DNA of 64,000 bases from Clostridia bacterium. Lineage in GTDB: Bacteria; Bacillota; Clostridia; Oscillospirales; CAG-272. This document shows positions 41,969 through 52,993 of the stretch, piece by piece. The stretch spans positions 92,893 to 156,892 of the forward strand of contig JAFYMF010000010.1 of assembly GCA_017556745.1 (NCBI GenBank), given 5' to 3'. Within the stretch, counting starts at the first letter, position 1. Each line of letters opens with the position of its first letter. The notes below the pieces were generated by a model. It was not told where the DNA came from. It made no database searches and saw only the letters and a list, made by a program, of their open reading frames with translations. The translations under genes were made by a program, and so were the position numbers.

Positions 41969-42916
41969 ATGAAGGTTGCACTTTGTGGTGTATGGCACGT
42001 ACATGCAGGCGGATATGCAAAGACCGCTAAGGAGTTTTCCGATGTTATCGGTGTTTGGGAAGCAGATAGCGAGAGAAAAGCTAATTTTGCAGAGAAGCAT
42101 GAGATTCCCGCTTTCGATACCTTTGAGGATCTTCTCGCATCCGATGCTGAAGGCGTAATCGTTTGCGCTTCTACCGATATGCACGCTGATCTTATGGTCA
42201 GAATAGCTGATGCAGGTAAGCATATCTTTACCGAAAAAGTTCTTACCCTTACCGACGAGGATGCCGACAGAGTTGCTGATGCTGTTAAGAGAAACAACGT
42301 TAAATTCGTTATTTCCTATCCCTGGAAGAAGAATGCCGGTGTTATTACCCTTAAGAACATGGTTGATGCAGATGAGATCGGCGTAATTAATTTCTTCCGT
42401 TTCCGTAACTGCCATTCCGGTAGTAGCGCTAACTGGCTTCCCAAGCACTTCTATAACGCTAAGGAGTGCGGCGGCGGTGCTATGATCGACCTTGGTGCTC
42501 ACGGTATGTATCTTACCGACTGGTTCTGCGGTGAGCCTGTTACTTACAAGTCTGTATTTACTAACGCTTGTATTAACGAGGATGCTAATGTTATCAACGT
42601 TGACCGTGTTGAGGATAACGCTGTTACCGTTATGGGATTTGCAAACGGTTGTATAGCCATAAACGAGACCGGTTTCGTTTCAAAGCACTATCCTTGCGTT
42701 CTTGAAATCGGTGGCAGTACCGGTTCTCTTATGTGGTACGGTGGAGATACTATCATCAAGCGTACTGAGGCAGGTGTAGAGGAAATCAAGGTTGACGAAA
42801 GTGTTGCTACTCTTTCTCCCCTCAAGCAGTTCCTTACCACTGACGACATACTTCCCGGTTACGGCATAGAGGAAGCAAAGAGACTCACTCACATGATGGT
42901 TGAAGCATATAAATAA
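41969..42916 (+). CDS. Gfo/Idh/MocA family oxidoreductase
   Basis: 315 aa with an N-terminal Rossmann fold and the EKVL/EKP-type motif (FTEKVL). Confidence 0.8.
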   Translation: MKVALCGVWHVHAGGYAKTAKEFSDVIGVWEADSERKANFAEKHEIPAFDTFEDLLASDAEGVIVCASTDMHADLMVRIADAGKHIFTEKVLTLTDEDADRVADAVKRNNVKFVISYPWKKNAGVITLKNMVDADEIGVINFFRFRNCHSGSSANWLPKHFYNAKECGGGAMIDLGAHGMYLTDWFCGEPVTYKSVFTNACINEDANVINVDRVEDNAVTVMGFANGCIAINETGFVSKHYPCVLEIGGSTGSLMWYGGDTIIKRTEAGVEEIKVDESVATLSPLKQFLTTDDILPGYGIEEAKRLTHMMVEAYK

Positions 42917-42945
42917 TTTTATATAAAGTATCATAAAACATGATT

Positions 42946-43000
42946 AAGACGGGGTTTGAAGCAATTAGCAATTGTTTTGACTCCGTCTTTTGTTTTTTCT
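42946..43000 (+). terminator. Rho-independent terminator
   Basis: AAGACGGGG ... CTCCGTCTT stem followed by a T-rich tract. Confidence 0.55.
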
Positions 43001-43103
43001 TAAAACCGCCGGTGCTGCCCCTTGTATCTATTCTTTCGGATTTGACATACTATGTAGATGAGGAGGAAAACTCTTCACTAATGACAATGAAAGGATCGAC
43101 ATA

Positions 43104-43424
43104 ATGTATACGGAAGAAAACAATATGATGTCACGTGAAATGATCGGTAACGAGTATCTTTTGCATGCGGCTGACAATAGAGGGCACAAATGTGATATGC
43201 CAAATAACAGATGTAACAGAAATACAGATAACGGCATAAGATGTACACCAAGCAAGACCTTTGGTCTTGATGGCTATCCTCTTGCCTCGATGTATGCTCC
43301 GCTTCAGGAATTCAGAAATCTATACGATAAGGAGACTGCTCTTATGGATGGCACTCTTTTTGCAGAGCTTAATCTTCCTTTTATGGGTGCAAGTGTTACA
43401 AAAGGAAGGTGTTTACATGATTAA
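43104..43424 (+). CDS. cotJA: Spore coat-associated protein CotJA
   Basis: GYPLASMYAPLQEFRNLYDKETALMDGTLFAELNLPF matches the CotJA family core. First gene of the cotJ operon. The exact start is uncertain. Confidence 0.75.
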   Translation: MYTEENNMMSREMIGNEYLLHAADNRGHKCDMPNNRCNRNTDNGIRCTPSKTFGLDGYPLASMYAPLQEFRNLYDKETALMDGTLFAELNLPFMGASVTKGRCLHD

Positions 43425-43746
43425 TTCCGGTAGACTAGATAGACGTGATTTATCAGCGGTGCGAAGATGTTCTGGGACAAATATCACGCCAAAGGAGACA
43501 AGAAAGCTCATCCATGAACTTCAACTCATAGATTTTTCGCTGATTGATACAATACTGTATCTTGATGCATATCCTTGCTCGGCAGAGGCACTTGATCACT
43601 ATCATAAACTACTTGCCGAAAAGAAGAAGATAGAAGAACTGCTGAGTCAAAGTGGATATCCCATAACAGCTAAAAACAATATATCCACATCTGCTTGGAA
43701 ATGGACAGATGGTCCATGGCCCTGGGAACTTGACGCTAACATGTGA
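43417..43746 (+). CDS. cotJB: Spore coat protein CotJB
   Basis: IDFSLIDTILYLDAYPCSAEALDHYH...GPWPWE. The ATG at 43417 follows an AAAGGAAGG RBS and overlaps the cotJA stop. Confidence 0.85.
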   Translation: MINSGRLDRRDLSAVRRCSGTNITPKETRKLIHELQLIDFSLIDTILYLDAYPCSAEALDHYHKLLAEKKKIEELLSQSGYPITAKNNISTSAWKWTDGPWPWELDANM

Positions 43747-43766
43747 GGAAAGGACGGACATACAGC

Positions 43767-43953
43767 ATGTGGATTTATGAAAAGAAACTTGAATATCCCG
43801 TTAAGATAAAGCACCCAAATTTACAAATTGCTAATATAGTGGTATCACAGCTTGGTGGACCGGATGGGGAACTCGGTGCATCTATGAGGTATCTTCATCA
43901 AAGATATTCCTGCCCCAATGCAAAAATAAGCGGAATACTGACAGATGTCGGTA
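43767..43953 (+). CDS. cotJC: cotJC 5' segment (codons 1-62 of a split manganese-catalase-family spore coat gene)
   Basis: MWIYEKKLEYPVKIK...GGPDGELGASMRYLHQRY...ILTDVG is colinear with the CotJC N-terminus. Homology stops at 43953. The ORF then reads 9 unrelated codons and stops at 43980-43982. Confidence 0.85.
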
Positions 43954-43985
43954 TAGAGGATATAAATTGTGCATTTATGTGATAA

Positions 43986-44220
43986 AAAATATTTATGAGG
44001 AAAAATCTCCTTTAAAAAAATCTTTCATACTTATTATGTAAACTTACATGAGTGAGTTTCGAAAAATATTTTTAATAAAGGAGAAAATTTTTTATGGAAA
44101 AAAATTTCATTTTCAATGGCGCTACTTATAATACTCGCGAGGAAGCAGAAGAGGCAGTATTTAACTATGCTACCGAAACATACGATGATATGTTGGATGA
44201 ATGCAATGAAGAGGTCAAAA
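43986..44220 (+). repeat. Repeat A, copy 1 (5' regulatory region plus first codons of orf93)
   Basis: Near-identical to 44577-44764: AAAATATTTATGAGGAAAAATCTCC...TCTTTCATACTT...AAACTTAC-N4-GT(G/A)AGTTT...AAGGAGAAA..ATGGAAAAAA. The coding part is alignable except for a 45-nt indel. Confidence 0.85.
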
Positions 44221-44375
44221 TCGGTAGTTTATCCTATCCTGTGTCATATGTTTTCAAAAGAGTTGATGAAATCGCTTATCGTTGTGGTTTGAACGATTAT
44301 GCTGATAGTTTGTTGTATGACATTGAAACAGAAGAGGTTGAACCAGAGGAAGACGAAATTGACGAAGAAAGATAA
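44094..44375 (+). CDS. Small acidic hypothetical protein (93 aa)
   Basis: AAAGGAG RBS. Highly acidic C-terminus (EEVEPEEDEIDEER). Shares its first ~12 codons and the DMLDEC-EEVK block with the downstream methyltransferase gene. Confidence 0.6.
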   Translation: MEKNFIFNGATYNTREEAEEAVFNYATETYDDMLDECNEEVKIGSLSYPVSYVFKRVDEIAYRCGLNDYADSLLYDIETEEVEPEEDEIDEER

Positions 44376-44407
44376 TACCAAGAAATGAACTAACCTAATA
44401 CAGAAAG

Positions 44408-44439
44408 AACGAGATGTCTCCGGGACATTTCGTTTTTTC
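44408..44439 (+). terminator. Rho-independent terminator
   Basis: AACGAGATGTC / GACATTTCGTT stem (one G-U pair) plus T6. Confidence 0.7.
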
Positions 44440-44467
44440 TGTTTACTACTGAATTTTATTCTGTCAC

Positions 44468-44546
44468 GCTTTGTTTGGATGTGTGCCGTATGGAGTAGGT
44501 TGGTGCTGTTATGTCTTGTTAAGTTCGGTTCTGCGAAAAAAACGGA
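44468..44546 (+). repeat. Repeat B, copy 1 (79 bp)
   Basis: GCTTTGTTTGGATGTGTGCCGTATGGAGTAGGTTGGTGCTGTTATGTCTTGTTAAGTTCGGTTCTGCGAAAAAAACGGA. It differs from copy 2 by 2 substitutions and 1 A-run indel. Confidence 0.9.
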
Positions 44547-44576
44547 TTTCCGTGAAGGATCCATCAAAAAACCAAC

Positions 44577-44764
44577 AAAATATTTATGAGGAAAAATCTC
44601 CTTTTATAAAATCTTTCATACTTTTCATGAAAACTTACACCAGTAAGTTTGTGAAAAATATATTTTATAAGGAGAAATTTCTATGGAAAAAATTTTTGTT
44701 TTTAATAACAGTCCTTACAACACATGCGAGGATATGCTGGATGAATGCTATGATGAGGTCAAAA
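44577..44764 (+). repeat. Repeat A, copy 2 (5' regulatory region plus first codons of the methyltransferase gene)
   Basis: See copy 1. It contains the perfect inverted repeat AAACTTAC-acca-GTAAGTTT (44631-44650). Confidence 0.85.
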
Positions 44765-45390
44765 CACCGAAAAAAGCAACGAAAGTTCCAGAGAGTAAGA
44801 CGAACAATAATATTTTCACTCCCTTGGGGGCAAGTAACCATTCGAACAAAAAACGAGAAGAACATGACTATTATGCAACTGACCCAAAGGCGTTGGAACT
44901 CTTGTTAGAACTTGAATCCTTTTCCAATTATGTATGGGAGTGTGCTTGCGGTGGCGGACATTTAAGTGAAGTCCTAAAAAAACACGGTCACGATGTAAAG
45001 TCAACAGATATTATTGACCGCGGTTATGAGGGAACAGAACTCATGGACTTTTTGACTGTAACCAAAGAAGACATAGCAAACGAGCACTCAAGAGATATTA
45101 TCACAAACCCACCTTACAAGTATGGAAAAGAGTTTGTAGAGCATGCATTGAACATTTCCCCAGAGGGAACAAAAATTGCCATGTTCTTAAAAGTACAATT
45201 CCTTGAGGGGAAAGCACGCAAAGCACTGTTCAACAAGTACCCACCCAAAACAATCTATGTATCGTCAAGTAGATTGCTGTGTGCCAAAAATGGTGTGTTT
45301 AAAGAAGACGAAAGTTCCGCTATAGCGTATGCTTGGTATATTTGGGAAAAGGGTTATGCCGGTGACACCATAATCAAATGGTTTAACTAA
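44683..45390 (+). CDS. Orphan DNA methyltransferase (NPPY, N6-adenine/N4-cytosine type) with an N-terminus borrowed from the orf93 family
   Basis: HDYYATDPKALELLL, VWECACGGGHLSEVL (SAM-binding) and IITNPPYKYG (catalytic) motifs. There is no adjacent restriction endonuclease gene. Confidence 0.75.
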   Translation: MEKIFVFNNSPYNTCEDMLDECYDEVKTPKKATKVPESKTNNNIFTPLGASNHSNKKREEHDYYATDPKALELLLELESFSNYVWECACGGGHLSEVLKKHGHDVKSTDIIDRGYEGTELMDFLTVTKEDIANEHSRDIITNPPYKYGKEFVEHALNISPEGTKIAMFLKVQFLEGKARKALFNKYPPKTIYVSSSRLLCAKNGVFKEDESSAIAYAWYIWEKGYAGDTIIKWFN

Positions 45391-45417
45391 AACAAAGGCG
45401 AAAGTTCTAATCTGCCT

Positions 45418-45497
45418 GCTTTGTTTGGATGTGTGCCGTATGGAGTAGGTTGGTGCAGTTATGTCTTGTTAAGTTTGGTTCTGCGAAAAAAAACGGA
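45418..45497 (+). repeat. Repeat B, copy 2 (80 bp)
   Basis: See copy 1. It starts 28 bp after the methyltransferase stop. Confidence 0.9.
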
Positions 45498-45591
45498 ATT
45501 TTTGCAATTTTCCGATTTTCAATCAAACTTGTCATACTTATATCGTAACAAAATACATAGTTCCCACGAATATGGGAAGAAAGGAAAAGTC

Positions 45592-45807
45592 ATGAAAGAA
45601 TTAAAAAAGTATATGGAATGTCTAAACGATGAAGAGTTCGGGCGACTTGTCAAAACATATTTTTATTATATGACACATCAAGACATTCCACCGAATATTG
45701 ATAGTCGCGCAGAACAGATATTTAGAACGACCATCAAAGCAAAATGTGATGTTCAACTTAAAGACAGAATAAGAAAAAGAAAGGGGAAAACAAATGCGAG
45801 AGGTTAA
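45592..45807 (+). CDS. Small hypothetical protein (72 aa), phage/plasmid replisome-organiser-N-terminal-like motif
   Basis: AAGGAAAAG RBS with ATG at 45592. LNDEEFGRLVKTYFYY resembles the L(S/T)DEExGxL motif of DnaD-like / DUF6291-type proteins. Basic C-terminus. Confidence 0.5.
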   Translation: MKELKKYMECLNDEEFGRLVKTYFYYMTHQDIPPNIDSRAEQIFRTTIKAKCDVQLKDRIRKRKGKTNARG

Positions 45808-46375
45808 AGACACGTTGGGAATAAAATATGATAAGTATGCTCTGTTGTATAATATGGATGACAGAGATGCCGGAAAACTGATAAAGTATTTGTTGTGGCA
45901 CTTTGGAAAGGACTGCATTTTAGAAAACTTGACAGCAGTATCAAAGAAGAAAATCACAGAGTATTCGAACAAGTTGGAAAAAGATGTTGAGGATATGCTG
46001 GATGATTTTCTGTTTGATAAGATATTTACAGAAATGACACAGCAAGTAACTAAATCACATAAATGTTGGCAAACTCTCAAAGATAACTTGGAAAAAAACA
46101 AAGGCAAAAATAAAGATACAGTAGAGAATCAAGGAACTGAACCACCGTGGGAACCGCCGTGTGTCCCCAATATGCATGTTATAGACATATACATAGAGGA
46201 AACCGGGGAAATTGAAACGATTATCGTGGAGGAAGAATACAAGAACAACACACCGTCCGGTGAGGAGTTAAATGCACACTTTTTATCTGATGATATTAAA
46301 TATATTATTATGAACGGGAATGGAAACGGATGGGTGGAACATTGGAGCGAATATGAACCATGTTCAAATAGTTAA
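45794..46375 (+). CDS. Hypothetical protein (193 aa)
   Basis: Overlaps the upstream stop by 14 nt. Contains the MDDRDAGKLIKYLLWH motif, similar to the previous ORF, and YDKYALLY, shared with the next ORF. Confidence 0.55.
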   Translation: MREVKDTLGIKYDKYALLYNMDDRDAGKLIKYLLWHFGKDCILENLTAVSKKKITEYSNKLEKDVEDMLDDFLFDKIFTEMTQQVTKSHKCWQTLKDNLEKNKGKNKDTVENQGTEPPWEPPCVPNMHVIDIYIEETGEIETIIVEEEYKNNTPSGEELNAHFLSDDIKYIIMNGNGNGWVEHWSEYEPCSNS

Positions 46376-46396
46376 TAGAAGAAAGGAGAACAAAAC

Positions 46397-46636
46397 GTGA
46401 GAACAGTTAAAAACAGTAGCGGTCATACATATCTAATACTTGCGGAATACGATAAATACGCCCTGCTGTATTGTCAACACTATAACGAGTACATTGTTGC
46501 ATATGGCATGGAAAATCAATTGTGTAACACAATAAAATGGCAGCAAGGTAGGTATTTCCAAAACGACCAAATCGCTGCTATAAACTACTTCAACGAAAAA
46601 ACACTAGAAAAGAAAGGAGAAACAATCAATGGATGA
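46397..46636 (+). CDS. Hypothetical protein (79 aa)
   Basis: GAAAGGAG RBS with GTG start. Shares the MRxVK...YDKYALLY pattern with the 193-aa ORF, with synonymous third-position differences. Confidence 0.5.
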   Translation: MRTVKNSSGHTYLILAEYDKYALLYCQHYNEYIVAYGMENQLCNTIKWQQGRYFQNDQIAAINYFNEKTLEKKGETING

Positions 46637-46814
46637 TAAAATCACTTGGGAAGATTTAGAGATTATCTTCACAAAAGAATTCGTTGACACCCTTAAACTG
46701 ATATATCAAAACAAAGACAGCATACTGCGATTAGCGAAAAAAAGGCAATCAGCACTCAAAGATATCGAAAATATGCTGAAAGATATCGAAGAGAAAAAGT
46801 ACAAAGATGATTGA
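46629..46814 (+). CDS. Hypothetical protein (61 aa)
   Basis: GAAAGGAG RBS. Overlaps the upstream gene by 8 nt. Predicted helical and charged. Confidence 0.45.
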   Translation: MDDKITWEDLEIIFTKEFVDTLKLIYQNKDSILRLAKKRQSALKDIENMLKDIEEKKYKDD

Positions 46815-46946
46815 CAGATACACACAGAAATCACTGTCGGTAGACCTTGCGGACTTGGTACAAGTCGTAGTAAGTCATATTTCTGCGAAATGGAAACAGT
46901 TTCGCTCATACTGTTATCATTAGAGCAGAGATATGACCGCACGAAG

Positions 46947-47050
46947 AAATACCCTCGTCGGATCGACGAGGGTATTTTGCAGTAAGGTTTAACGGCAACA
47001 ACTACCGCTTTCTGTTGCCGTTCCTTTGCTCCCACAATTTTGAGCAAAGG
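46947..47050. other. Three consecutive perfect hairpins upstream of the relaxase gene (candidate oriT region)
   Basis: Hairpin 1 is AAATACCCTCGTCG-gat-CGACGAGGGTATTT (46947-46977). Hairpin 2 is AACGGCAACA-N12-TGTTGCCGTT (46991-47022). Hairpin 3 is CCTTTGCTC-N10-GAGCAAAGG (47023-47050) and overlaps the mob RBS. Confidence 0.4.
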
Positions 47051-47061
47051 AGATTTTTGAC

Positions 47062-47754
47062 ATGAGCAGATATGCAATCATGCGATTTCAAAAATATAAG
47101 GTGGGTTCGGTCGCAAACATCGAGCGACACCAAAACCACCGTGACCGCCTCCGCAATCGCAAGTACCCAGAGCGAGAGGGCGAAAACTACACTTGGAAAC
47201 GATATGATGAAACAATGACGCAGACAGTCCGCAAAGCGATAAAAGCACAGGAGCAGGAGACTGGGCGAAAAGTCCGCAAGGATGTAAATGTGATATGTGA
47301 GTTGGTGCTGACATTCTCCCCCGAAATGGAACACGAGGTTGATTTAGTGGAATGGATGAAAGCAAACATCCGATGGGTTGGCAGAACATTCGGCAAAGGG
47401 AAAACCTTGAGAGTTGACCTAAACCGAGACGAAACCACCACTCATATACATTGCTTCGTGATAATGACCGATGAGCAAGGGAGATTCAATTCTTCGCGAT
47501 TCTTCAACAAGAAAAAACAAGTCATAGAAATGCAAGACAGTTATGCCGAAGCAATGAAACAATTTGGACTTGAAAGAGGACAGAGCAAGGATATTACTAG
47601 TGCAAGACATAAAACTTTACAAGAATGGAGAACGGAGGAGTGTGAGCGGTTGGAAAAGGAACTTTCTCATATTGCGGATAGAATATTTGCAGATAAACCG
47701 AAAATCGAATACAAAGGAACGATTGATACCGATGTGTTAAATGATGAACGATAA
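47062..47754 (+). CDS. MobV-family (Mob_Pre) relaxase, short form
   Basis: MSRYAIMRFQKYKVGSVANIERHQNHRDR resembles the N-terminus of pMV158 MobM (M..ARMQK.K.G.L....H..R). RDETTTHIHCFV corresponds to the HxDExxPHxH motif. It is only 230 aa. Confidence 0.8.
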   Translation: MSRYAIMRFQKYKVGSVANIERHQNHRDRLRNRKYPEREGENYTWKRYDETMTQTVRKAIKAQEQETGRKVRKDVNVICELVLTFSPEMEHEVDLVEWMKANIRWVGRTFGKGKTLRVDLNRDETTTHIHCFVIMTDEQGRFNSSRFFNKKKQVIEMQDSYAEAMKQFGLERGQSKDITSARHKTLQEWRTEECERLEKELSHIADRIFADKPKIEYKGTIDTDVLNDER

Positions 47755-47811
47755 AAAGGTGCTGTTTTTAACATTTCTCTAAAATGGCTTTACTTTTATG
47801 GGAATATGTGC

Positions 47812-47984
47812 TATAATAGTTATGCCACACAAACCGAATACTTATGCTCGTTTAGGGGGAGATTACCTTGGCAAAAGGTGCTCTCCTTAATCCCCTATGC
47901 GAGTAGAGCGGAGGTTTGTGTGGCAACGAACGAGGATGTAGCACTTTTTCGGTGTGTACGACCTCGGTCGTGCACACTTTTTTT
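47812..47984 (+). ncRNA. Candidate structured RNA or single-strand DNA element: ~100-nt rod-like hairpin with its own promoter-like -10 and terminator
   Basis: TGcTATAAT at 47809-47817. The 12-bp closing helix GCCACACAAACC (47824-47835) / GGTTTGTGTGGC (47913-47924) encloses nested helices CTCG/CGAG, TAGGGG/CCCCTA, GAGA/TCTC and CCTT/AAGG. A 12-bp terminator stem at 47952-47977 is followed by T7. Confidence 0.45.
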
Positions 47985-48004
47985 ATTATACTGGAGGAAA
48001 TCAA

Positions 48005-48706
48005 ATGAAAACCAAAACATTAGTAACACTGTTACTCACAATAGTGATGATACTGTCACTCGCATCTTGTAACAAAAATCAACTAAGCGAACAGCCCACC
48101 GAAACCGAAAATGATATTCCCGAAACTAGCAATCAATCTGTATCCCCAACAGATATCGATGATACAAGTTCTATTACCCCCTTACCTACTGATACGGATG
48201 ATTCAACAGAAACTGCTGATGATAGTATTTTGTATTCTGGTCGAGAAATGTATGAAGAAATCATTTATGCATTTATAGAAGCAGATGATGAACTTTCTAG
48301 AGGTTGGTTCGACAAAGATGCTCAAAATTTAGTTCGGTTAATTAAAGGTGATACTATATCTTCTGATGCATCAGTAACAGATTTATTAAAGGTTTACAGA
48401 GGTTTTGATGATATAATTGAATTTACTGATTATTGTATTAGAGATTTTTTCACTGTGACAAATTCTTATGAATCAACAAATGGTGGTGTATACAATTTTT
48501 TTGAGGCAATAAATCAGTTGGAAGATGAAAAACTAAACAATTGCGATGTTATTAAGACCAATTCGAATGGAAATGTAATAGGTTTTGATTTCGATATTGC
48601 TGGTGGAGATAAGGCAATTGCACAGGCATTGGGAGTAAGCGAAGAATTTGTAAATATTATGATACATGCTGCTTCCGATGCAGGATTCAACGTGACATTT
48701 GATTAG
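48005..48706 (+). CDS. Lipoprotein of unknown function (element cargo)
   Basis: GGAGGAAA RBS. MKTKTLVTLLLTIVMILSLASC signal peptide with lipobox. A T/D/E/S-rich linker is followed by a ~170-aa globular domain. Confidence 0.65.
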   Translation: MKTKTLVTLLLTIVMILSLASCNKNQLSEQPTETENDIPETSNQSVSPTDIDDTSSITPLPTDTDDSTETADDSILYSGREMYEEIIYAFIEADDELSRGWFDKDAQNLVRLIKGDTISSDASVTDLLKVYRGFDDIIEFTDYCIRDFFTVTNSYESTNGGVYNFFEAINQLEDEKLNNCDVIKTNSNGNVIGFDFDIAGGDKAIAQALGVSEEFVNIMIHAASDAGFNVTFD

Positions 48707-48765
48707 TTTACATACAAAAGATATGGGAGAAAAGAAAAATCTCTCATATCTTTTTTAACAATGTT

Positions 48766-49521
48766 TTATTTTTGCTTACATTGAGATAATAATTCTGCAA
48801 GGATATTTTGGAATGGAACAATACTTGCTAATGCTTTTTTACTATCAAACCACCCGTGCATTAGATTGTTTGCTTTACAAAACCACATTGAGGAAATATG
48901 ATTTAGAAAAATATCGTTCTTAATTTTTTCGGTAAAATCATTTGCGTACATTTCGCAAATAGAGCGGATTCCCCAATAATTGTATAAAACTCCTACTGCC
49001 ATTTTTAATGTTTCGAAATCATTTGGAAAATCTGTTTTACTAAATAAATCAATAGCAAGTTGTTGTTTTTCCTCTATGTATTCTAACACTGTTTTACTTA
49101 TTGAAAATGGTTTGATAAGGGTATTCATCGTAAAATTAGGAACATCGTCAATCGTATTTGCTCCAAGTAATTTTACCAACCCTACTTGTGATGCATGGTA
49201 TTCGCTAAATCCTGTAATACCCAAATATATAATTTTATTTCCTTGGGCAAATTGATGTGCATCAAGTATATGGGTAAATTCATGAAAAATCAAAAAATCG
49301 GAATTTAAAACATTTCTATTGACCGTAAGTGTGTGTGAATTTGTATCAACTTTGTAATCTGCGGCAGCAATAGAACCAGCACCAAATGAATCAATCTCGC
49401 TTTGAGATACCTCGTCTATTTTAATCATATATGTAGGGAAATCTTTGATTTCCATAAACCGCATATATTCTTTTTCAAGATTTCTAATTTTTAACTCTAA
49501 TCTATCTATTTTAACTTTCAT
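48766..49521 (-). CDS. HExxH-motif protein (putative zinc metallopeptidase; distant ImmA/IrrE-like?)
   Basis: 251 aa, cytoplasmic. FLIFHEFTHILDAH contains HExxH, with a downstream EYH. It lies 23 nt downstream of the recombinase gene on the same strand. Confidence 0.55.
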   Translation of the reverse strand: MKVKIDRLELKIRNLEKEYMRFMEIKDFPTYMIKIDEVSQSEIDSFGAGSIAAADYKVDTNSHTLTVNRNVLNSDFLIFHEFTHILDAHQFAQGNKIIYLGITGFSEYHASQVGLVKLLGANTIDDVPNFTMNTLIKPFSISKTVLEYIEEKQQLAIDLFSKTDFPNDFETLKMAVGVLYNYWGIRSICEMYANDFTEKIKNDIFLNHISSMWFCKANNLMHGWFDSKKALASIVPFQNILAELLSQCKQK

Positions 49522-49544
49522 TCCTCAAATCTTCCTAACTCATC

Positions 49545-51302
49545 TTAAATCTTTTCAAATCCGTTTTTAGGTGCTTTTCCAAGCATTTCGACAAACTGTT
49601 CTTTTGAAAGAACAGTAAACTCTGCCGTGTAGTCCTCGCCCCTGCCTGTGGTCTTATATTGCAGATAGATAGGCATAGGAATGAACGACAAGTGAAACTC
49701 AAGCAAATTGTCGGGATATACAAAAATCTGCTTTGTCGCTCTCTCATAGTAGACGTCGTTCAAATCATCGGCAGAGAGGTCAACCATTTCTTGCAGTTGC
49801 TTTATGTAGTCCTCGTATATCCGTATCTCTGCTTCAGTAGTGTCTGATATCTGTAAATTTTTCAGTTCGGTCTGCAATTGTTCAAATTCATCATTTACCG
49901 TTACGATTGTTGCTTGATAAGCACTTTCTGGAACAATGCCACTTATCCATCCCTGTGTGAGTTTGGCAAGTTGCTCCTGTTTCTTTGATATTGCCTTTTC
50001 CAATTCTGCGATTTTCGTGGTGTTGTCCTTGGGTTTGGAAAGTTCCTCTATATCCCTTTGCAATTCTGCGAGAATGATGTCTTTGTTCGGGATGAGGTAA
50101 TCTGCCACAATATCATGAACGGCAGTTTTAAGCACTCTGTCATTCACTCTCAAAGCATTACAACCAACAGTAGTGATTTCGCCCGTGTCAAGTGTTATTT
50201 GCTTGTAGCGACCTCTCTGGTGGTTCTCAAAGCATACCCAAGCACGATACGGAATATTCTTCTGCTTCTTTACGTAACTGACATACCGCCGACCGCACAA
50301 ACCGCAGTAAACCTTGCCACTCGTCCAGTATCGGTTGGAGTGCTTCGCCTTGATTTCTTCGCTCGGTGCTTTCTCTTCAAGTATGGTCTGTACCTTGTTC
50401 CAAAGTTCTCGGTCGATGATAGCACTTTCCGGGTGGTGGTCTTGTATGTAAAACATATGTGATTCGCCACGGTTGTATTTCTTTTTATGGGTGAGTGCAT
50501 TTGGTGTATATGTCTTACCTTGTGCCAAATCTCCTACATATTTCTCATTTCGCAGTATACGAAGAATAACGGTATTACTCCAACCGTTTTTGTATCTTTT
50601 TGTGGTTATTCCTTGCTGTTCCAATCGCCTTGCAATACGGTGTGTGCCTTCGCCTGCTGCAAACCATTCGAACATGTTCTTGATGACCTTTGCTTCCTCT
50701 GGAACGATTTCAAAGTGCTGTATACCAAGTTCATCTTTAACAATATTGTAACCGTACATCTCTTTTCGACCGAAAACCGTACCAAGTTCCATCTGTTGTT
50801 GGTGTCCCCATTTGACACGGCGAGATGTTCGCAAACTCTCTTGCTCTGCATTTGTTGCGATTTGAGTGAGTCGCTCTCGATAGTCGTTGCTCTCCGTATT
50901 GATGTCATCCGACAAGAACCAGATATAAACTCCTTTGGCGCGGAGTTCTTCGACAATATTCAAAAGGTGCTGAACATTTCGTGAAAAACGCGAAACCTCT
51001 TTTGTGAGGATGATGTCTATACCGCCACTACGAGCAAGGTGGAGCATACGAATGAAACCATCTCTTTTTTCAAGAGAGGTGCCAGAAAGTCCCTCATCCG
51101 CAAAAATTCCAACATTGCTCCAATTCTTGTGAGAATTGAAATACCGAGCGAAAAACTGCTTTTGTGCTATCAGAGAGTTCTTTTGGTCGCTCTCATCGGT
51201 AGATACACGGCAGTAGGCACAAACACGGTGCGGTTCGTTATCATTTGTTTTGAGTGGTCGTTTTGCGGGTTCTATTACTGTTGTTGTTCCCATTTTGCAC
51301 AT
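49545..51302 (-). CDS. Large serine recombinase
   Basis: The N-terminal resolvase domain carries the catalytic-Ser context AYCRVSTDESDQ. Further features are SRFSRN, a recombinase domain, a zinc-ribbon (CGLCGRRY...WVCFENH...VGC) and a C-terminal coiled coil. 585 aa, as in SpoIVCA/SprA-type enzymes. Confidence 0.9.
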   Translation of the reverse strand: MCKMGTTTVIEPAKRPLKTNDNEPHRVCAYCRVSTDESDQKNSLIAQKQFFARYFNSHKNWSNVGIFADEGLSGTSLEKRDGFIRMLHLARSGGIDIILTKEVSRFSRNVQHLLNIVEELRAKGVYIWFLSDDINTESNDYRERLTQIATNAEQESLRTSRRVKWGHQQQMELGTVFGRKEMYGYNIVKDELGIQHFEIVPEEAKVIKNMFEWFAAGEGTHRIARRLEQQGITTKRYKNGWSNTVILRILRNEKYVGDLAQGKTYTPNALTHKKKYNRGESHMFYIQDHHPESAIIDRELWNKVQTILEEKAPSEEIKAKHSNRYWTSGKVYCGLCGRRYVSYVKKQKNIPYRAWVCFENHQRGRYKQITLDTGEITTVGCNALRVNDRVLKTAVHDIVADYLIPNKDIILAELQRDIEELSKPKDNTTKIAELEKAISKKQEQLAKLTQGWISGIVPESAYQATIVTVNDEFEQLQTELKNLQISDTTEAEIRIYEDYIKQLQEMVDLSADDLNDVYYERATKQIFVYPDNLLEFHLSFIPMPIYLQYKTTGRGEDYTAEFTVLSKEQFVEMLGKAPKNGFEKI

Positions 51303-51552
51303 CCTCTCTCTTAATACCCATAACGTCTCTTATGTACTTCTTGAACTCTTCAACGAAAACTGCTTGTGCTTCCGGTGTCTTAAAAAGTGCATCTGGGTTT
51401 GTAATCACAAAGGTGTGCTCCTTGCTATGTGTATTTACATAGCAAGCATATGATTCTGCGATGTATTTTAGTAATTCATCCTCATTTGTAATTGTGGAAG
51501 CAACCGTGAATTGTTCTGCGGTCATGTACTCTTTATAGTTATAAAAGTCCAT
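51241..51552 (-). CDS. Small hypothetical protein (103 aa), first gene of the recombinase operon
   Basis: GGAGGG RBS lies 6 nt before the ATG at 51552; the track ORF starts further upstream, inside cotJC sequence, which is implausible. Its 3' end overlaps the recombinase start by about 60 nt in another frame. Confidence 0.5.
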   Translation of the reverse strand: MDFYNYKEYMTAEQFTVASTITNEDELLKYIAESYACYVNTHSKEHTFVITNPDALFKTPEAQAVFVEEFKKYIRDVMGIKREDVQNGNNNSNRTRKTTTQNK

Positions 51553-51574
51553 TTTCATCCCTCCTGTCATATCT

Positions 51575-51603
51575 ATTATATCATGCACAATTTTATTCGT
51601 CAA
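51575..51603 (-). promoter_or_regulatory. Near-consensus sigma-A promoter of the recombinase operon, embedded in the right att arm
   Basis: On the minus strand: TTGACG (51603-51598), 17 bp, TGaTATAAT (-10 at 51580-51575). The -35 box ends 2 bp from the GGTA core. Confidence 0.55.
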
Positions 51604-51609
51604 TAGGTA

Positions 51610-52031
51610 CCGAAGAACTCGCCCACCTTGAGATTGTGGCGGCAATACTTCACCAGCTAACACGTGACCTTACCCCCGATCAGATAGCAGGTACTCCTTT
51701 TGCTACATATTTTGTAGATCATACCGCTGGAGTATACCCAGTAGCTGCCTCGGGAGTACCGTTTGATATGAAATACGTAGGAGTAAAGGGCGATCTTCTC
51801 ACCGACCTTAATGAAGATCTTGCGGCAGAACAAAAAGCGAGAACGACCTACGATAATATTCTTCGCCTCGTTGACGATCCTGACGTAAGAGATCCGATAA
51901 AATTCCTTCGTGCGAGAGAGATCGTTCACTATCAGAGGTTTGGCGATGCCCTGCGTATAGCACAGGATAATTTGGACCACAAGAACTTTTACGCTTGCAA
52001 TCCTTCATTTGACAAAAACTGCGGGAAATAA
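51610..52031 (+). CDS. cotJC: cotJC 3' segment (codons 63-202)
   Basis: In-frame (T)EELAHLEIVAAILHQLT...GVPF...LAAEQKARTTYD...FLRAREIVHYQRF is colinear with the CotJC/Mn-catalase C-terminal part. There is no RBS or ATG of its own. Confidence 0.85.
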
Positions 52032-52035
52032 AACA

Positions 52036-52070
52036 AAGAGCAGATGCTTTTGCATCTGCTCTTTCTATTC
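52036..52070 (+). terminator. Rho-independent terminator of the cotJ operon
   Basis: AAGAGCAGATGC tttt GCATCTGCTCTT stem followed by a T-rich tail. Confidence 0.75.
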
Positions 52071-52110
52071 GACATATTGGAATTTATAGACAGAAAGGAA
52101 TACCGCTTTC

Positions 52111-52242
52111 TTACTTATTGTTACCCTTGTTTTTGATTTTACATATCATTTGTGTCATTGTTCCCATTGGGCAGAAAGCACACCAAGAACGAGGCTTAAG
52201 CAACGCCATAACAACAAGGCCAATCAATGTGGATGTGAGCAT
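52111..52242 (-). pseudogene. Possible remnant or small ORF with a 4Fe-4S-protein-like C-terminus
   Basis: The minus-strand frame encodes ...MLTSTLIGLVVMALLKPRSWCAFCPMGTMTQMICKIKNKGNNK*. The R-x-W-C-x-x-C-P-x-G motif resembles membrane 4Fe-4S binding proteins. The open frame extends only ~72 codons and has no convincing start or RBS. Confidence 0.25.
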
Positions 52243-52396
52243 TAAACTGTAAAAACCAAAAGCAAATTGTGCTACCCAGTAGGGAACAAGACCTGCGATA
52301 TTTGAGGAAATTCTTTTTTTGTTTTTTTCTATTGCTTTTTGTATTCGTTAAGTATATAATTGAGTTACATAAAAATAGTAGGAAGGATTTTTTACC

Positions 52397-52993
52397 ATGA
52401 ATAAGGAAAAAATTTATCTTTTTGACGGTTCTGATCTTAATGACTGGACTACCCGTGGTACAGGAGAAATTCCCAACTGGAAGGTAGAGGACGGTATCTT
52501 TACTGTTGGTAACGGTGATATCATTTCTAACTATCAGTTCGGTGATGCACATATTCACGTTGAATTCAGAACTCCCGATATGCCCGAGGCAACCGGACAG
52601 GGCAAGGGTAACAGTGGTGTGTATGTACACGGTTGTTACGAGATTCAGGTTCTTGATTCCTACGGTATTGAGGAGCCCCAGAGTAACGATTGTTCCGGTA
52701 TATATAAAATGCATACCCCTCTTTTCAATGCATGCCTTCCTCCTATGGAGTGGCAGACATATGATATAATCTTCCGTGCGCCTCGTTTCAATAAGTACGG
52801 CGAGATTGCTGAAAACAGCAGAGTCACCGTTATTCAGAACGGAATTGTTGTTCACAACAACGTTGATCTTATCAGTGTTACTCCCGGTGGAATCACCGAC
52901 GGTAAGAGACCCGAGCGCGGTCCTCTTATGCTTCAGGATCACGGCAATGCAGTTTCATACAGAAACGTTTGGGTTATGCCTCTTAGCGAGTAA
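52397..52993 (+). CDS. DUF1080 (3-keto-disaccharide hydrolase-like) domain protein
   Basis: 198 aa. LFDGSDLNDW...W.VEDG...GNSGVY..YEIQVLD...GPLMLQDHGN.V.YRN(V)W pattern. Confidence 0.85.
   Translation: MNKEKIYLFDGSDLNDWTTRGTGEIPNWKVEDGIFTVGNGDIISNYQFGDAHIHVEFRTPDMPEATGQGKGNSGVYVHGCYEIQVLDSYGIEEPQSNDCSGIYKMHTPLFNACLPPMEWQTYDIIFRAPRFNKYGEIAENSRVTVIQNGIVVHNNVDLISVTPGGITDGKRPERGPLMLQDHGNAVSYRNVWVMPLSE

Follow-up and report, generated by a model that had tools for sequence, protein, structure and literature searches.

In the DNA analysed here, the spore-coat gene cotJC appears as two pieces that lie several kilobases apart, which raises the question of what came between them and at which bases the exchange took place. 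The window, by which we mean the whole stretch of 64,000 nt, comes from a Clostridia bacterium of the Oscillospirales, CAG-272 (assembly GCA_017556745.1, contig JAFYMF010000010.1, positions 92,893–156,892). We find that the two pieces border an integrated element that encodes a large serine recombinase, and we consider it probable, at roughly 85%, that this is an integrative mobilizable element of 7,656 bp lying within cotJC, with serine-recombinase att sites that cross over at GG (Table 1).

Joining positions 43767–43953 to 51610–52031 gives a 202-amino-acid open reading frame (ORF) without interruption (...ILTDVGTEELAHLEIV...), which lies downstream of cotJA and cotJB and matches Pfam Mn_catalase (E = 4.6e-52). 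The exact rebuilt protein is found as an intact called gene (P0241) in public assemblies, on two Logan contigs from different runs. In the empty-site contig L090, positions 1–1460 align with window positions 42494–43953 at 99.4% identity and positions 1457–2444 align with 51606–52594 at 98.7% identity, and these two flank alignments overlap by exactly 4 nt, GGTA. Because the same-species empty site overlaps the flanks by GGTA only, the element is precisely bounded at 7,656 bp, with no other duplication or deletion. The species has genomes both with and without the element, and all seven contigs that carry an identical recombinase show the integrated context. A search of JGI metagenomes for the exact 31-nt attB pattern gave no match; the empty site differs from that pattern by one synonymous base. 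Base composition was of no help in placing the boundaries, the GC content of the element (0.31–0.46) being not sharply unlike that of the flanks.

Table 1. Window positions of the interrupted cotJ operon, the integrated element, its att sites and its main genes.
Feature	Positions	Strand	Basis or remarks
cotJA	43104–43424	+	Pfam CotJA, E = 2.1e-12
cotJB	about 43426–43746	+	Pfam CotJB, E = 5.1e-19
cotJC 5' fragment	43767–43951	+	Codons 1–61 and GG of Gly62
cotJC 3' fragment	51608–52031	+	Third base of Gly62 to the stop codon; contains the ExxH segment (E65, H68)
Integrated element, 7,656 bp	43952–51607 from the GG crossover; equally 43954–51609 from the 4-nt overlap		Empty-site contigs L090 and L091; intact rebuilt ORF
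attL	43927–43974	.	Host B arm to 43949; GG 43950–43951; distal P' arm TATAGAGGATATAAATTGTGCAT 43952–43974
attR	51583–51630	.	Proximal P arm ATGCACAATTTTATTCGTCAATA 51583–51605; GG 51606–51607; host B' arm from 51608
DNA methyltransferase-like cargo gene, orphan, with NPPY	44683–45390	+	phrog_799, E = 1.2e-64
Mob_Pre (MobV-type) relaxase	47062–47754	+	Pfam PF01076, E = 6.2e-27
Predicted lipoprotein cargo gene	47954–48706	+	
251-aa cargo protein with HExxH motif (HEFTH)	48766–49521	-	
Large serine recombinase, 585 aa from the first ATG (database copy P0001, 582 aa)	49545–51302	-	Pfam domains and invariant residues
Conserved small ORF, about 103 aa	51241–51555	-	Upstream of the recombinase gene, overlapping its start
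Sigma-70-like promoter, TTGACG-17-TATAAT with TG extension	51575–51603	-	Within the recombinase-proximal att arm

As integrated, the ORF of the cotJC 5' fragment continues past the junction into element sequence and ends at 43982. The break falls inside a conserved D-[VI]-G-T-E-E-L-x-H segment (D-V-G-T-E-E-L-A-H in the window). E65 and H68 of the window CotJC align to Glu66 and His69 of 1JKU (the Mn catalase of L. plantarum), residues that we take to coordinate the dimanganese centre of that catalase, and the codon that is broken, Gly62, lies three codons upstream of the Glu66 equivalent and six upstream of the His69 equivalent. A sequence-only reading of this DNA had set the insertion exactly in the codons of the metal-binding Glu/His segment; the conserved segment is indeed split, but the 1JKU alignment moves the break itself out of the ligand codons and into Gly62. 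Because the break parts the N-terminal portion from the ExxH segment and the rest of the protein, we may fairly infer that the split cotJC is non-functional.

GGTA stands at 43950–43953 in attL and at 51606–51609 in attR, and when the junctions are aligned in register it is their sole contiguous identity, in agreement with the earlier reading, whose quoted strings all lie where it had placed them. That reading had also proposed that attP carries imperfect inverted half-sites. The rebuilt attP, ATGCACAATTTTATTCGTCAATA-GG-TATAGAGGATATAAATTGTGCAT, is about 48 bp long (23 nt, GG, 23 nt) and has 18 of 23 positions complementary between its arms, as the proposal implied. This degree of inverted symmetry greatly exceeds what chance would give: none of 200,000 random pairs of 23-mers drawn from the element reached 18 complementary positions, and of the 63,952 contiguous 23-2-23 dyads across the window only 3 do so. 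Within the 64 kb, a perfect AATTGTGCAT motif is found just twice, once in each arm. On the left, TTGTGCAT (43967–43974) begins 13 nt past GGTA, and on the right, ATGCACAA (51583–51590) is 15 nt ahead of it; the spacings of 13 and 15 nt given previously are correct as counted from GGTA, but the asymmetry is not real, since both motifs are 15 nt from GG. A third arm-like site at 46269–46287 (inverted repeat I11) was rejected as a chance occurrence, one-mismatch matches to the motif being no commoner than in shuffled sequence.

Homologues of the recombinase number in the thousands. We scanned one genome per species and kept the best 80 loci, mostly from Oscillospirales and Lachnospiraceae metagenome-assembled genomes (MAGs); in about 75 of these 80 the recombinase lies within cotJC, and the gene is interrupted at that very codon. 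Junctions were extracted in the cotJC sense and anchored on the Gly62 codon, which gave 110 junction fragments and 34 elements with both junctions present (that of the window and 33 relatives). GG is at the anchor in every one of the 110 fragments. The sequence shared by attL and attR contains GG in 34/34 elements and is GG alone in 13 of them, and the best attP dyad symmetry is centred on GG in all 34, with 12–21 of 23 arm positions complementary. For example, L002, which has near-identical arms and a recombinase 84% identical to that of the window, reads ..ATT-GG-TATAGAGG.. at attL and ..CAATA-GG-AACCGAA at attR, and only GG is common to the two. The host Gly62 codon varies across loci (GGT 25, GGC 12, GGA 10, GGG 1), and attB dyad symmetry is at chance level, typically 4–8 of 23 positions. 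From the sharing of GG alone in 13/34 elements and the symmetry centre in 34/34, we therefore place the crossover at GG. The sequence-only reading had regarded GGTA as the core, which the junctions of relatives narrow to GG; the check that it had suggested, a comparison of att sites among homologous elements, picks GG from among GG, GT and TA and finds the arms symmetric about it.

In the mechanism that we propose, the 585-aa recombinase would have recombined an attP of roughly 48 bp with the cotJC site, cleaving and rejoining at the GG of Gly62. This GG would be unchanged whichever glycine codon the host uses, at a place where the gene is best conserved, and such constancy could let one type of recombinase target many families of spore-forming Clostridia. 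Excision would leave the joints ...TTCGTCAATA-GG-TATAGAGGATA... (attP) and ...GATGTC-GG-TACCGAAG... (attB), both of which would read GGTA in this strain. Neither the excised circle, recognized by its attP junction, nor the lineage-level attP pattern was found in viral contigs or JGI metagenomes; relatives in the viral contigs showed no attP-like dyad, and several of them abut cotJC fragments.

At least four recombinase lineages, 39–100% identical to the recombinase of the window, cross over at the same GG. In the window lineage, the consensus read outward from the core is TATnGArGA....aTTGnnnAT in both arms. All four lineages have TAT at arm positions 1–3 and ATTG..AT at positions 15–23, and the inner block varies: that of lineages A and B (TATTGAAGA) is like the host B' arm, or right half (nACnGArGA), and that of lineages C and D (TATATCGGT) is like the host B arm, or left half (nATATCnGT). 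By analogy with the structure of the LI/A118 integrase, the recombinase domain would contact the inner block (TATnGArGA), and the zinc-ribbon domain the outer block (ATTGnnnAT, positions 15–23). A position weight matrix of the outer block, applied to attB, has a peak in B' that is 4 bp nearer the core and weak (mean of -3.6 bits versus about -20 elsewhere, confounded by coding constraint), and B has no clear copy. The model of the LI integrase places the ZD motif at bp 16–24 in attP and 5 bp inward in attB (PMC3783163); with its shift of 4 bp, weak and in one arm only, the window family is compatible with that model, which is not proof of it. This mimicry of the host site by the inner blocks was noted in L035–L039, L043, L044, L051 and L052–L080, and in some loci it gives junction identities of up to 9–14 nt.

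Taken as a whole, the sites resemble those of A118/LI, Bxb1 and phiC31, with an attP of about 50 bp that has imperfect inverted arms, a non-palindromic 2-bp crossover, an outer (ZD-type) attP motif at about bp 15–23 and an attB with little symmetry. What sets the window element apart from them is that its recombinase shares no more than 36% identity with any integrase of the phage collection and that a promoter is built into its att arm.

Elements in the opposite orientation also occur in cotJC (L004–L012, L014, L041 and others), with recombinases that are 70–77% identical. Read in the recombinase sense, L013 and L040, in which the recombinase is antisense to cotJC, have 'CC TATTGAAGAATAAAATTGTTTATG.TATAAT', and L004 and L006, in which it has the same sense as cotJC, have 'GG TATTGAAGAATAAAATTGTTTATGTTATAAT'. 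The proximal arms of L013 and L004/L006 are identical over 31 nt, and that of L040 has one difference. PMC3783163, citing Ghosh 2003 and Smith 2004, attributes orientation solely to the central dinucleotide. The combination of matching proximal arms with complementary cores indicates, as far as sequence comparison can, that the non-palindromic GG sets the orientation of insertion, and the orientation-flipped lineage argues against a role for a palindromic attB. In L004–L012, L014 and L041 the cotJC 5' fragment ends three codons on (G-I-E-E-stop; for example, L007 7915–8320). The cotJ operon of this same-sense lineage then runs directly into the operon of the small ORF and the recombinase, an arrangement that could couple expression of the recombinase to sporulation.

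The recombinase contains Resolvase (PF00239, E = 4e-28, residues 28–172) and Recombinase (PF07508, E = 3.6e-24) domains, together with a Zn_ribbon_recom domain (PF13408, E = 6.7e-5) whose score of 23.6 is slightly below the gathering cutoff of 25.3. The catalytic residues R32, V33, S34 and T35 and the cysteines C333, C336, C357 and C381 are invariant across 31 homologues. These three domains bear out the earlier assignment of attL and attR to an element of a large serine recombinase. The protein matches the phrog_95 integrase family (E = 1.7e-110) but has no close annotated relative, the best match reaching 36% identity among the collected phages and 34% among the collected plasmids, and the closest PDB entry, 3g13, is a catalytic-domain fragment.

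The promoter in the proximal arm scores 11/12, the top score in the region; its -35 hexamer begins 2 nt from the core and its spacer contains the outer arm motif. It is kept in 31 of 39 proximal arms, 29 of which also have the TG extension. Given the position of this promoter inside the proximal arm, the recombinase probably acts as a repressor of its own gene when it occupies attR or attP. The small ORF that precedes the recombinase gene, and whose 3' end overlaps the start of that gene, belongs to a family of 24 homologues of about 103–113 aa with invariant ITNPDALF and YIRD..GIKRE.VQ motifs, and it adjoins the recombinase in 34 loci. It has no match in Pfam or PHROG and its AlphaFold model has a pLDDT of 60; we regard it as a candidate regulator or directionality factor.

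The element also encodes a Mob_Pre relaxase, homologues of which are present in 23 related loci. A scan of ten ORFs of the element gave no match to type IV secretion system (T4SS) families, and no oriT was identified in the element. Because it has a recombinase and a relaxase without genes for a conjugation pore, the element looks like an integrative mobilizable element (IME). The intact recombinase and the matching att sites form an integration and excision module of its own. After excision, the relaxase would let the circle transfer by way of a co-resident conjugation system. IMEs with a serine recombinase and a MobV relaxase have been catalogued in streptococci and other Firmicutes (PMC5704250, PMC5357655). 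The window element has the same modules and size class as these IMEs, which depend on a helper conjugative element for transfer, and differs from them in its target gene and host group. Besides the cargo genes listed in Table 1 there are several small ORFs, and the related elements have none of these cargo genes.

Could the crossover instead fall at TA or GT, with the palindrome in the rebuilt site as the recognised attB core, its symmetry permitting either orientation? The sequence-only reading had pointed to this 10-bp palindrome, TCGGTACCGA, and it is indeed present, perfect and found again in the empty site of the same species; both orientations are known in the family. Taken by itself the palindrome carries little weight, and in the window such perfect 10-bp sequences arise at about 0.0011 per position. 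The junctions of the window element alone fit GG, GT and TA alike, so that its GG is assigned through homology and symmetry. TA and GT go unshared in the 13 elements, L002 included, that have only GG in common, and attP symmetry is on GG in 34/34. The palindrome recurs in just 2 of the 34 rebuilt sites and is missing from the other 32; the intact cotJC genes of the closest other species, gapless across the site, read GTTGGTACCGAG, GTGGGCACGGAG and GTAGGTACCGAA, none of which contains it. Its centre, TA, is 2 bp off the GG centre. The additional TA comes on the attR side from the wobble base of the host GGT and the A of the Thr codon, and on the attL side from the two bases with which the element arm begins (TAT...). 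On the sequences compared, the palindrome is incidental, a product of the codon choice GTC GGT ACC GAA and not a recognition feature. A palindromic TA would also abolish polarity (PMC3783163). Among the closest lineages the distal arm is particular to the orientation class, with a CC core in one class and GG in the other, and we give a TA or GT core very little credence. Least likely of all, in our view, is a mobilizable transposon with relaxed target choice that came to lie in cotJC by chance. Tn4451 and Tn4453 are small elements that encode TnpX and the Mob/Pre protein TnpZ and use a 2-bp crossover, and circle formation in Tn4451 puts together the tnpX promoter across the joint. The gene set is of the same type, a large serine recombinase and a Mob_Pre relaxase in an element of 5–8 kb, and the N-terminal domain of TnpX is a detectable homologue (E = 1.7e-6), but this resemblance is remote and confined to the catalytic domain. 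A transposon of this type would insert at many sites defined by a short core, whereas roughly 75 of the best 80 genomic relatives occupy a single dinucleotide of cotJC; unlike Tn4451, the window element is strictly specific to cotJC Gly62, has GG as its core and carries both promoter hexamers in one arm. It is also improbable that the element is an immobilised remnant, with relic sites on which the recombinase no longer acts: the identical recombinase is seen in integrated copies only and no attP junction was found in the collections searched, but the full-length recombinase ORF has kept every invariant residue, the arms and the promoter show no damage, and same-species genomes with flanks about 99% identical are without the element.

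A different possibility would add to the preferred reading, a site-specific mobilizable element with a GG crossover, rather than replace it: the element may be a developmentally regulated intervening element of the skin, SPbeta or gin type, with excision in the mother cell rebuilding cotJC and the forespore keeping the element. Serine-recombinase elements of other sporulation genes do excise during sporulation (PMC5595907, PMC5499854). The elements in sigK (skin/SpoIVCA), spsM (SPbeta/SprA–SprB) and gerE (gin, B. cereus) are well described, vfbin and vrin are of the same kind, and gin is small and not a prophage (PMC5595907). Like skin, SPbeta and gin, the window element is a serine-recombinase element in the coding sequence of a mother-cell sporulation gene, here of the spore-coat operon cotJA–cotJB–cotJC, and its precise excision would restore the frame, as the rebuilt ORF and the empty site indicate. 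A bioRxiv text (10.1101/2021.11.22.469490) cites cotJC as an insertion locus from Abe et al. 2013, and in the opposite-orientation lineage the cotJ operon reads into that of the small ORF and the recombinase. Unlike skin, SPbeta and gin, however, the window element carries a Mob_Pre relaxase, and its hosts are uncultured gut Clostridia, not Bacilli. The sole recognisable promoter of the recombinase is of the vegetative sigma-70 type, and neither a sporulation-sigma promoter nor a known directionality factor was identified in the window element. Ordinary horizontal mobility suffices to explain a relaxase together with element-free genomes in the species. The pressure to restore the gene may also be weak, given that mutants of two CotJC homologues in C. 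difficile had no significant spore-coat defect (PMC11222575); the same source reports that phi027 of C. difficile adjoins a CotJC homologue. On balance, we think developmental excision possible but doubtful.

These results bear on the annotation of gut genomes, in which paired 'Mn_catalase' fragments in these MAGs are two parts of a single gene that a mobile element has split, rather than pseudogenes, in at least 75 species-level genomes. For the biology of recombinases and their use as tools, the family provides dozens of natural attP/attB pairs for related enzymes at one conserved target, and includes a natural core flip, from GG to CC, that reverses orientation, as well as arms that are like either attB half-site. 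Such a set of natural att pairs could help to show how attB and attP are recognised by enzymes of this kind. In spore biology, cotJC emerges as a gene in which insertions are frequent among uncultured gut Clostridia, which raises the question of whether excision restores the catalase at sporulation. cotJC was already known as an insertion locus, and current understanding is not overturned. A literature search found no account of the att anatomy, spread, recombinase lineages or mobilizable nature of cotJC elements, and we see modest added interest in the breadth of the family, in the way several recombinase lineages have converged on a single dinucleotide and in the core flip that occurs in nature.

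Taken jointly, and as a tentative proposal that we hold to be possible rather than probable, the observations could mean that cotJC Gly62 serves a whole set of mobilizable elements as a common landing pad in spore-formers of the gut. No fewer than four lineages, only about 40% identical to one another, would have converged on GG, with arms that mimic either half of the host site and with insertion in either orientation according to core polarity, and some of the elements may be wired for excision in the mother cell. If so, the spore-coat catalase would be a switchable trait, and the window lineage would repress itself through the promoter in its att arm.

Several loci depart from the common pattern. 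Among IMG/VR contigs L093–L106, several lineage-C relatives lie on contigs classed as viral, some of which abut cotJC 5' fragments, and some cotJC-targeting elements may be prophages rather than mobilizable elements. At the cotJC 5' junctions of three distant relatives with about 41% identity, L072, L073 and L077, host sequence is kept through GGCACAG or GGCACCGAGGA before it diverges; the break seems to fall a number of bases downstream of GG, and these loci may form a separate lineage with another crossover. For the pair L049/L092, L049 is without a cotJC 3' fragment beside the recombinase, and L041 and L045 have extra cotJC 3' pieces. The irregular contexts of L049, L041 and L045 hint at tandem or nested insertions or at rearrangements at the site.

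The left part of the window element contains internal direct repeats, which might be promoters, operators or recombination scars. One pair (43986–44089 and 44577–44680; 104 nt, 81% identity) lies upstream of two paralogous small genes (MEKNFIFNG.. and MEKIFVFNN..), and another (44468–44542 and 45418–45492) extends over 75 nt at 97% identity. Contig L088 ends within this direct-repeat region. The motif ..TCATACTTAT.. occurs three times, at 44011–44041, 44602–44632 and 45518–45548, upstream of plus-strand genes.
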